Shown here one piece after another: positions 20,501 to 23,500 of a stretch of 64,000 nucleotides of DNA (positions are counted from its first letter, which is position 1; each line of letters opens with the position of its first letter). The position numbers and the translations under genes are program-made. The notes below the pieces were generated by a model, which saw only the letters and a list, made by a program, of their open reading frames with translations, was not told the origin of the DNA and searched no databases. The DNA is taken from positions 183,644,001 to 183,708,000 of the forward strand of contig OX597815.1 in the NCBI GenBank assembly GCA_951406725.2, written 5' to 3'. This DNA comes from Octopus vulgaris. Its lineage: Eukaryota.

Positions 20501-23500
20501 TGAATTTGATAGATGGAAACTGAAAGAATCAGACAAAGCCCAATAAGGCAGAAATGTTCATCTAACATTCTCACTGTTTCTGTTGGAGGATTTTCATCTG
20601 TTACTCATATAATTATGAGTTTTTAAACACATTGTATCCATGAGGTGTATTATTAATTTGCCTTTCACAATGTCTCTGCATTAAGTATGATACACAGATG
20701 GTTATTTTAATCTAATACTGCTTCTGTGGCATATAAAAGAAACCCAGGAAAATAATAACATAGGGTAAAACCACAAGACTTGAAACATATTCTTAACTTT
20801 GATACTTATTGGTAAAACATTTTATGTCCAGCAATAACACACTTAACTCATAAAAATTATCCTCTTCGTCTTATGATAAAGATATAAAGATGATGTTAAA
20901 TACAAACTTGTTACCAGTTCTAGAATTTAATATTTTAGTTTTAAAAAGGCTTATACCCAAGGTTGTTTTGATTGGCCTAAGAAACCAGACAGATTGATTC
21001 ATTAACATTCCTTTCAGGCTATTGCAAGTTGGTGACTGGAAGAAAGCCATATGTAGAGAGGGAATTCTCATGGTCCAACATTTTGGGAAGAAACAACTGG
21101 ACATGGCTGTTAGTATGGGATCTGAAGGTTGGGCACATGTATATGCAAACTCAAGCACATTCACTCATACATTCATACATTTTAGATTACCAAGTTTCAT
21201 TTTTTTACTTTTTAGAAGTTAAAATGTTCTTATACAAATTAATTATGGTTACAAGAACATCAAGGATTCTACAACTTAGGAATTCAAGCTACAAAACAAA
21301 TTAATAAAAAGGAAAATAAAGTCAATAGCCAGCTGGAGGAGGTGTCCTCCTAGGGCTACAAGCTATTGTAGCATCCACCCTTAGTGGTTAGCCACATTTA
21401 AGTGGCAAATATACTTCACATTGTCTTGCAGCTACTGTTTATACCTCGTTCAGAGATTTATTATTGCTTGTTTACGCTTTTTTGAGATCAGTGACTTTTC
21501 ATCACTGGAAAAAGAATATATGTATTTGCTTTGGGACCCCTTCACATAGAAGACTGGTGATTGTCGTGTGCTGACGATGGGTAAATACTCAGAAACCTGG
21601 GTCCGTGTGTATCACACCAGGTTGACGACGGGAAAGATGGCTTCCCTTTGCAAATACTTATAGGGCACAGAAAGTGTGTCACTAGCCAGCTGGAGAAGAT
21701 GTTCTCTTGGGGCTACAAGCTACAGTAGCATCCACCCTTAGTGGTTAGCCACATTTAAGTGGCAAATGTACTTCACATTGTCGTGCAGCTAGTGTTTATA
21801 CCTCGTTCAGAGATTCATTAAAATTATTATATAGAAATCTGCAATAAATGGTTTATTTACTAGAACTATATTGATTTTTCTTACCTTTTTCCTGAAACTT
21901 GACTGAAATTTCATATAAATCTCTTCTCCAGGGTTGTACATAATATTGAAATCTGGTCCATCAATGACATAAAAGAGAGAGGATGCTTTCATTATGGAAA
22001 TAAATTTCCCCATGTAATTCAGTTTTGGGTTGTAGTCTCCATTGATATAAAGGCCATGTTGGGTAATCTTAGCAGTAATATCTTGCATATCAATACGAAG
22101 AGAAACCGAACAATTGAATGTGCTTTGAAATGGTCTCATACAGGAAGTAAATTCCAAAGATACTTTCAGAGTATTATTTTTAGCTTTTGTCTGAAAAAAA
22201 AAAGGTCCAACATTAAAGTTTAATAATTAGAGACAACGAACGAATACATACACACACACATATATATATATATATATATATATATATACATTAAAATATA
22301 TATATACACATGAAAATGTGTATATATGTATGTACACACACAAATATATGGCACAGTGGAAAAAGTATTGAACTTACAACTTGAGGTTGTAAGTTCAATT
22401 CCGGGTTGTGTGTTGTGTTTTGTGTAAGGCATTTTATTTCACATTGCTCCAGTTCACTCAGCTGTAGAAATGAGCTGCGATGTCACTTGTGCCAAGCTGT
22501 ATCAGCCTTTGCCTTTCCCTTGGATAACATCATTGGCGTTGAGGTGGGAGGCTGGCATGCATGGGTGACTGCTGGTCTTCCATAAACAACCTTGTTCGAA
22601 CTTGTGGCTAAGAAGGGAAACTTTCTAGGTGCAAGTCTATGGTCATTTGTGATCAACGAAGGTCTTTACTCCAATATATCTATATCTATATCTATATCTA
22701 TCTATCTATCTATCTATCTATCTATCTATCTATCTATCTATCTATCTATCTCTCTCTCTCTCTCTCTCTCTATATATATATATATATATATATAAAACAT
22801 TCCTCTCAGTGCCAAATATATATATGCATATATATGTATATATATATATATATATATATATATATATATATATATATATATAATATAAAAATTATATTTC
22901 ATCTATAATTAATGACAATATGTGTGTATTTTATATATATATATATATATATATATATATATATATATATATATATATATATATATATATATATATATTG
23001 GTATTATGTTGTGCTTGAGATTAAGACCTTTGGCATTAAGTTGTGCTTGAGAAGACCCATCAAACTGAACAAAATTGCAGTCATGACAGATACCAGTGTC
23101 ACGCAAATAGCATCCATGCCCAGTGGGACATAAAATGCACCCATTACACTCATGGAGTGGTTAGCATTAGGAAGGGCATCCAGCTGCAGAGACCATGCCA
23201 AAACAGACTGGAGTCTGGTGCCGCCTCTCCGCTTGCCAGCACTGGTCAAACCATCCAACCCATGTTAGAATGGACAATGGACGTTAAATGATGATGATGA
23301 TGATGATATATAATCTACATATATTACAAAATGCACCCTGTTCTTCCCCAAGACGTTTGGTGAAGGCTGGAGGGTATATCAGCTGAAACAGTGTGTTAAC
23401 AACAAACAAGATGAGGACAAATATCCACCAAATATAAATAATGTAAATAATGTCAATTTCCTGTATTCAGTTCAAATATGAAAGTGAAAGTCGAAATGTG

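Follow-up and report, generated by a model that had tools for sequence, protein, structure and literature searches.

The window analysed here is the whole 64,000-nucleotide stretch of Octopus vulgaris DNA, and positions are counted from its first letter. At approximately 17700-27200 its minus strand carries exons of a VWD/C8/TIL-domain gene, which we take to be mucin or hemolectin-like. An open frame at 21886-22200 on the same strand is likely one of these exons; a Pfam scan of the frame itself gave no match, and the neighbouring exons match VWD, C8 and TIL. The insertion described below (21321-21820, plus strand) lies antisense in what is likely the next intron, approximately 65 nt from an inferred donor site that was read by eye. 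An unrelated family of short tandem repeats, with a period near 137 bp, occupies approximately 18300-19200.

The insertion comprises 1.4 units of a 357-bp retrozyme, truncated on its 5' side and bearing the long, tail-containing form of the 3' end. The preliminary description had reported 138 bp recurring exactly 357 bp later; the spacing stands, but the repeat (21321-21463 and 21678-21820) is 143 nt long and 92% rather than letter-for-letter identical. Its upstream member is a partial unit resembling a pseudo-LTR. The downstream member is hairpin-rich and holds both inferred reverse-transcription start sites. The short 3'-end site lies at 21770-21777 (unit phase ~100, +173 nt from the predicted hammerhead cut); the window copy reads through it into an optional 'tail' of ~44-46 nt (21778-21820) that separates the short 3' end from the long one. 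Such a repeat, pseudo-LTR plus tail, is a partial tandem of the Penelope type, which had gone unrecognised. Two other early observations hold: the element's ends (21321 and ~21820) are away from the cleavage site, the cut being predicted after 21603, and the insertion is longer than one unit, the genomic evidence favouring repeated reading of a monomer. No clear target duplication was found at this copy. Its longest frame spans only 60 codons from stop to stop, as in a short non-coding unit of the 150-450-nt range, and no open reading frame for a reverse transcriptase and GIY-YIG endonuclease lies within the element, which is not an autonomous Penelope-like element (PLE). A tRNA origin of the unit was rejected, no tRNA gene being found, and no promoter was identified for the family.

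Between the two members of the repeat lies a type I hammerhead (21557-21615, plus strand) with a predicted cut after C21603. All parts of the complete core and distal stem I helix reported previously can be located. The core CTGACGA (21571-21577), stem II (21578-21591) and GAAA (21592-21595) are read directly from the plus strand; a 2-bp stem III with a decayed palindromic tetraloop follows at 21595-21602, and stem I pairs 21565-21570 with 21604-21609, with a distal helix between 21557-21561 and 21611-21615. Stem II has the five base pairs attributed to it, but its basal U-A pair is a minority state among the hammerheads. C-to-T changes at CpG sites are present in stems I-III of this copy, and the U at the base of stem II is probably also a product of CpG decay. 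Two checks suggested in the preliminary description turned out negative here: an Rfam covariance-model scan of the window copy gives no hammerhead match even at E up to 10, and the fold of the window monomer is no more stable than those of shuffled sequences (z -0.77 linear, -1.07 circular). The hammerhead fold of this copy lies 17.2 kcal/mol above the minimum-energy fold, compared with 3.6-14.8 kcal/mol in six other copies. A long helix extending stem I, at approximately 21512-21660, brings the stretch 5' of the ribozyme into pairing with that 3' of the cut and is predicted to hold both ends of a cut-to-cut monomer together; read by eye rather than counted, subfamilies A and B maintain this pairing with different letters. 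With one hammerhead only, the window copy is probably a decayed dead end that would be unable to release a monomer.

An older subfamily is represented in the same window by a copy at 50328-50990 (plus strand), which is 68-77% identical, is flanked by (TA)n and has two hammerhead motifs, one of them decayed. In this copy stem I is paired through an entirely different set of letters, and stem III has 3 bp. The window also contains a decayed PLE at 36325-38578 (plus strand) with reverse transcriptase and GIY-YIG remnants, ending in (TA)n, with a degenerate minimal hammerhead-like motif near 38482-38505, and an inverted pair of PLE endonuclease fragments at 58439-58924.

Searches of the genome (2.8 Gb, 227 contigs) place the insertion in a high-copy dispersed family with several subfamilies, units of 352-357 bp and few tandem arrays. 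The window stretch returned 4567 first-look candidates; the best 30 loci of the 40 scored are 86-92% identical to it, the window itself excepted. A degenerate hammerhead-core pattern has 452 exact matches, an exact 23-mer of subfamily A, to which the window copy belongs, has 265, and an exact 22-mer of the younger subfamily B has 1507, with none for the reversed control in each case. Since these exact-pattern counts are lower bounds, the family numbers in the thousands, and the retrozyme family anticipated in the preliminary description is borne out by dispersed copies on this scale with a conserved, covarying type I hammerhead. Subfamily B was reached through four runs guessed to be RNA, used only as a lead; their contigs, which lack ends, strand and level, cover the element with mostly subfamily-B letters and do not cover its flanks.

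The window copy carries one hammerhead; tandems with at least two occur elsewhere and are candidate source loci. Patterns spanning two cut sites gave 30 and 18 matches, 48 together, one of which (L311) is spurious. Arrays with 10, 9, 5 and 3 cut sites were found, only three of them, among the 48 matches, having at least 5. In these three larger arrays the units are 0-8 letters apart, with the variants arranged alternately or as a mosaic, a pattern suggestive of local amplification. The arrays had been considered as single rolling-circle products and were rejected as evidence of this kind, alternating and mosaic variants pointing to local amplification or assembly error. A different kind of duplication is seen at L111 (1290-2186), where a 250-nt piece including the hammerhead is triplicated in what looks like a local event after insertion.

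Conservation of the hammerhead was assessed on 187 junction matches, one evidently spurious, with base statistics taken on 182. The copies have the features given for type I hammerheads in the consulted part of PMC4209133: a conserved core, the 3-8 pair, a 6-bp helix I and a 1-2-bp helix III with a palindromic loop. The spacer after the cut is 6 nt in 182/187 matches. At L009 (1393-1961) both units have an identical 4-nt insertion directly after the cut that is unseen in other loci. Stem-loop III is an exact 8-nt palindrome in 102/182 and retains all four pairs, with G.U allowed, in 150/182; its loop occurs as CCGG, UCGA, UGCA and UAUA. The base of stem II (10.1-11.1) is C.A in 124/182 and U-A in 33/182, with the canonical G10.1-C11.1 pair in only 13/182.

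Covariation was examined in an alignment of 53 copies (A2: a random 15 of 76 from subfamily A, a random 15 of 45 from A', all 22 from B, and the window copy), 91 of 143 complete hammerheads being left out. The 3-8 core pair is kept in 50/53 copies, with C3-G8 replaced by U-A in 8/53, a swap also reported for PLE hammerheads (PMC4209133, in the section consulted). Stem I letters differ by subfamily with the pairs retained, and stem II pairs change from G-C to A-U. Paired cells amount to 92.7%, against 85.7% in shuffles (0/500 as high) and 18-53% with slid partners, figures that must be read knowing that shuffles ignore relatedness, that CpG decay (strong here, at 19.6% versus 6.0% departure) can mimic covariation and that many rows were picked by the core pattern. 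Pairs with double changes are not above control (11 versus 9.4 shuffled; 104/500). With covarying stems I and II and 452 pattern matches against 0, the type I hammerhead is conserved across copies, as had been proposed. The less decayed monomers of L247 and L002 fold as circles with z -5.1 and -6.1 and that of L147 with z -1.3 (40 shuffles each); 2/4 monomers folded no better than shuffles.

Judged by sequence, source copies very probably encode a working ribozyme. The weak palindromic helix III suggests dimeric cleavage, by analogy with the hammerheads treated in PMC4209133 and PMC7229834. A U4-to-C core change, which may tune cleavage down, is present in the examined units of two arrays and in several subfamily-B copies; in combination with C.A at the base of stem II it may make cleavage slow. 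Arrays with this change lie at L326-L333 (contig C2, 14.087 Mb) and L339-L342 (contig C25, 8.52 Mb).

The ends of the copies give the clearest view of how they were inserted; duplicate loci of one insertion were dropped from all counts. The 3' ends fall at two sites, ~+173 (+172/174) and ~+219 (+218/221) nt from the cut, ~45 nt apart. In the core-match sample (96 loci behind the first 100 of the 452 matches) 80/96 loci end at unit phase 87-104 or 135-165, in the 3'-region-motif sample (87 loci behind the first 100 of the 265 matches) 84/87 end at the two sites, and in subfamily B 66/76 segments from 42 loci end near +173 or +219. The 5' ends are ragged and spread, with no shared terminus and no fixed LTR ends. 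The free circular permutation of the preliminary description is thus replaced by a pattern in which only the 5' ends vary, and copies all sharing fixed ends with TIR or LTR hallmarks, which it had named as evidence against a retrozyme, were not seen. Pile-ups of 5' ends at the cut and in stem II had been suspected from two samples; in the pooled data neither is significant, stops no more than 7 nt from the cut numbering 5 against 8.3 expected, and those in stem II 18 against 13.8 (p 0.19).

An inverted 5' partner accompanies 39/96 loci of the core sample and 43/87 of the 3'-motif sample, and these inverted insertions pair one short with one long end in 26/39 and 36/43 cases, respectively. (TA)n or (CA)n lies within 25 nt of the 3' end at 44/84 loci, compared with 168/2001 control windows (8.4%). 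Among the 70 of 246 loci with non-simple flanks, the 176 with simple-repeat flanks having been dropped, 27/70 have target duplications of 8-15 nt, most often 12, compared with 1.3% of mismatched pairs. This insertion anatomy is that of PLEs. As described in the available portions of PMC8557442 and PMC3846280, PLEs form partial tandems, accompanied by a 5'-truncated copy in inverted orientation and, at one end, a tail of 30-40 bp, and the tail is the stretch between two internal reverse-transcription start sites (PMC11167929, in the part consulted).

Young PLEs that could supply such an enzyme are present in the genome. A GIY-YIG search gave 6136 candidates, 150 of which were scored, with many in 781-codon open frames. 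L101 and L107 encode reverse transcriptase plus GIY-YIG endonuclease, and their cysteine linker resembles that given for Neptune in the text seen of PMC8557442; both families end in (TA)n, have their own hammerhead motifs and have two 3' ends ~28-40 nt apart. L101 (406-5172) is a young, high-copy Neptune-type PLE with a 781-codon reverse transcriptase-GIY-YIG frame, 99%-identical pseudo-LTRs, an upstream 359-codon frame without a clear family and a U3-A8 hammerhead motif ~75 nt before the short end. L107 (2082-4483) belongs to a second young family and has a perfect inverted 5' copy; in its hammerhead motif the basal position of stem II is a U.U mismatch. A partner search with blastn and tblastn in the surroundings of GIY-YIG and hammerhead loci found no autonomous PLE similar to the unit among 40 GIY-YIG loci, drawn from the 150 scored of 6136, and neighbouring remnants; a match of 17-22 nt to the L107 family is no better than chance. 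The tails of the PLEs in this genome are ~28-40 nt long, as against ~45 nt in the retrozyme family. We have little doubt that the family is mobilised by PLEs.

On every DNA-level feature tested, the family fits the non-LTR retrozymes as characterised in the consulted parts of PMC7229834 and PMC7761336, and thus represents a known kind of element. Cervera and de la Pena (2020; PMC7229834) give units of 220-245 nt in coral, 350-390 nt in mussel and 330/350 nt in axolotl. Shared with these metazoan elements, as far as that account extends, are a non-coding 150-450-nt unit with one type I hammerhead, a weak helix III with a palindromic tetraloop, dimers to multimers, target duplications of more than 4 bp and PLEs in the same genome; the mismatch at the base of helix II recurs in axolotl HHR_Amex2. 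Departing from the descriptions there, the octopus copies are mostly dispersed fragments of no more than ~1 unit, with a PLE tail, 5' inversion and fixed 3' ends. The retrozymes of PMC7229834 were shown to cleave and to form circles, whereas the present family is known from DNA and is set beside them by description. Our mostly open-access literature search found no paper on a retrozyme family of octopus or other cephalopods, though the supplements of PMC7229834 and of the preprint discussed below may list cephalopod families; the giant squid genome paper (PMC6962438) counts 235 Rfam hammerhead-1 matches, with no analysis of them in the part consulted.

Mobilisation of retrozymes by PLEs was proposed in PMC7229834 and is argued in a preprint by Li, Clavereau and Pollet (bioRxiv 10.64898/2026.07.22.740005), in whose available text non-LTR retrozymes count as PLE derivatives that are not autonomous, on the strength of co-occurrence and pLTR similarity in 35 genomes, none from a mollusc ('mollus', 'octopus' and 'tail' each have 0 occurrences in that text). 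Our results agree with that text on a PLE carrier and on dispersed monomers with few multimers. The preprint, in the same portion, suggests local amplification; our evidence lies in insertion anatomy, with no pLTR similarity to a sampled autonomous family. Partial tandems, the inverted 5'-truncated copy, the optional one-end tail, two start sites, (TA)n and AT-rich targets and a hammerhead near the 3' end are all shared with Neptune-type PLEs as presented in the parts seen of PMC8557442, PMC3846280 and PMC11167929. Unlike those, the retrozyme has no open reading frame, a tail of ~45 nt rather than 30-40, and a full-size type I hammerhead with extended stem I where theirs is minimal. The non-autonomous Chlamys PLEs such as MRC1 (PMC8557442, in the section consulted) are similar in being non-autonomous, with pLTRs and head-to-tail insertions, but their 3' sequence also occurs in autonomous partners, and canonical hammerheads are missing from most Chlamys.

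How many times the template was read, and in what form, can be approached from the longer copies. Of 145 segments, 25 are longer than one unit and 4 extend as far as a second cut. From a linear monomer already cut, priming at +173 or +219 would give no more than that number of bases, yet 103/145 segments continue past the cut. In 26 subfamily-B tandems the units diverge by 4.7% within loci, compared with 10.7% between loci (non-CpG sites; 0/2000 permutations), and they share 112 distinct minority variants, of which 64 were seen in just one locus pair and 23 at none of the other loci examined. The 30 tandems of the older subfamily A show a smaller contrast and hence a weaker signal, 7.7% within versus 8.5% between, with shared variants at 19/3558 versus 88/63956. 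Differences between left and right units are not inherited between loci (46 same- versus 35 mirror-oriented; 53 versus 67). Array loci and the spurious L311 were excluded from the shared-variant and left/right tests. Because private variants are shared within loci and left/right differences are not inherited, we conclude that there were many different templates, each yielding units that resembled one another when inserted. The simplest account of alike units with private variants is a monomer circle, and we regard a circular template as probable. Ligation footprints were not seen at the junction, with a pattern that catches only near-intact junctions.

We therefore favour, with a probability of roughly 0.6 for the whole, a reading in which a hammerhead retrozyme family likely makes a monomer circle that is likely written back by a Neptune-type PLE enzyme. 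Loci with at least two hammerheads would be transcribed, and the ribozymes, probably acting as dimers through the palindromic loop III, would release a cut-to-cut monomer. A host ligase would then close this into a circle; RtcB closed other retrozymes in vitro (PMC7229834, in the part consulted). The PLE protein, with its reverse transcriptase and GIY-YIG endonuclease, would nick AT-rich DNA, start at +173 or ~+219 from the cut and run round the circle until the reverse transcriptase falls off, a second cDNA often being started from the other site on the opposite strand. The window copy at 21321-21820 would correspond to 1.4 rounds from the long site.

The same carrier might instead have read uncut linear multimers transcribed from homogenised tandem arrays, the hammerhead doing no more than trimming and circles being by-products or absent. 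The arrays of ~10, 9 and 5 cut sites, with units 0-8 letters apart, could serve as such templates, uncut RNA is the dominant template in the one biochemically studied PLE (anole), where hammerhead cleavage is dispensable in vitro (PMC11167929, in the text available), and the weak base of stem II, like the U4C cores, suggests slow cleavage. We consider this unlikely all the same. Only three arrays among 48 two-site matches have five or more cut sites, while the 112 distinct shared variants, 64 of them found in just one locus pair, imply many templates; ordinary dimers differ by ~5% between units and these differences are not passed on; and it is not obvious how read-through templates would maintain selection on the ribozyme. 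A linear cut-to-cut monomer, on which the reverse transcriptase jumps from the 5' end to a 3' end held close by the long helix, would account for identical units without ligation, and its ends are indeed predicted to pair with each other. Such jumps should produce both a pile-up of 5' ends at the cut and an altered spacer; the former is missing (5 versus 8.3) and the spacer is standard in 182/187, which makes this route improbable.

Two further explanations are much less probable. Every insertion hallmark of the family is a PLE hallmark, as would follow if the copies were 5'-truncated ends of an autonomous PLE; long copies, however, run into another unit and not into an open reading frame (13/84 and 25/145 exceed one unit), and the PLE coding remnants near nine loci are separate insertions, by sequence at L045, L053 and L142 and by coordinates at six, leaving this account very hard to sustain. 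Least credible of all is a chance motif in a locally duplicated repeat, a satellite or a DNA (TIR/LTR-type) element. It would fit the failure of Rfam to match a hammerhead and of the window copy to fold into one by energy, and it runs against the covariation across subfamilies, the 452 versus 0 pattern matches, the 5' truncation, the fixed 3' ends and the absence of a shared 5' terminus.

The circle-templated, PLE-written reading bears on two linked questions that the consulted papers leave open, namely the enzyme responsible for moving animal retrozymes and the role of hammerheads in PLEs. Earlier arguments about the carrier drew on co-occurrence and pLTR similarity; in the octopus family the PLE signature is found in the insertions themselves, and the genomic evidence for PLE mobilisation, with two start sites, a one-end tail and 5' inversion, is unusually direct. 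The shared private variants point in addition to a monomer read more than once. Because young intact PLE open reading frames and near-intact arrays coexist in this genome, it offers a 355-nt RNA and a candidate enzyme for a test of linear against circular templates, with predicted start sites at +173 and ~+219 nt. Tentatively, and with the odds somewhat against it, the family may be the genomic record of rolling-circle target-primed reverse transcription, in which a changing cloud of ~355-nt hammerhead circles captured Penelope-type enzymes over several subfamily waves by RNA shape and not by shared sequence. If so, thousands of insertions map the two start sites of the enzyme on the circle, and this record would account for the association of pseudo-LTRs, tails and hammerheads in PLEs.
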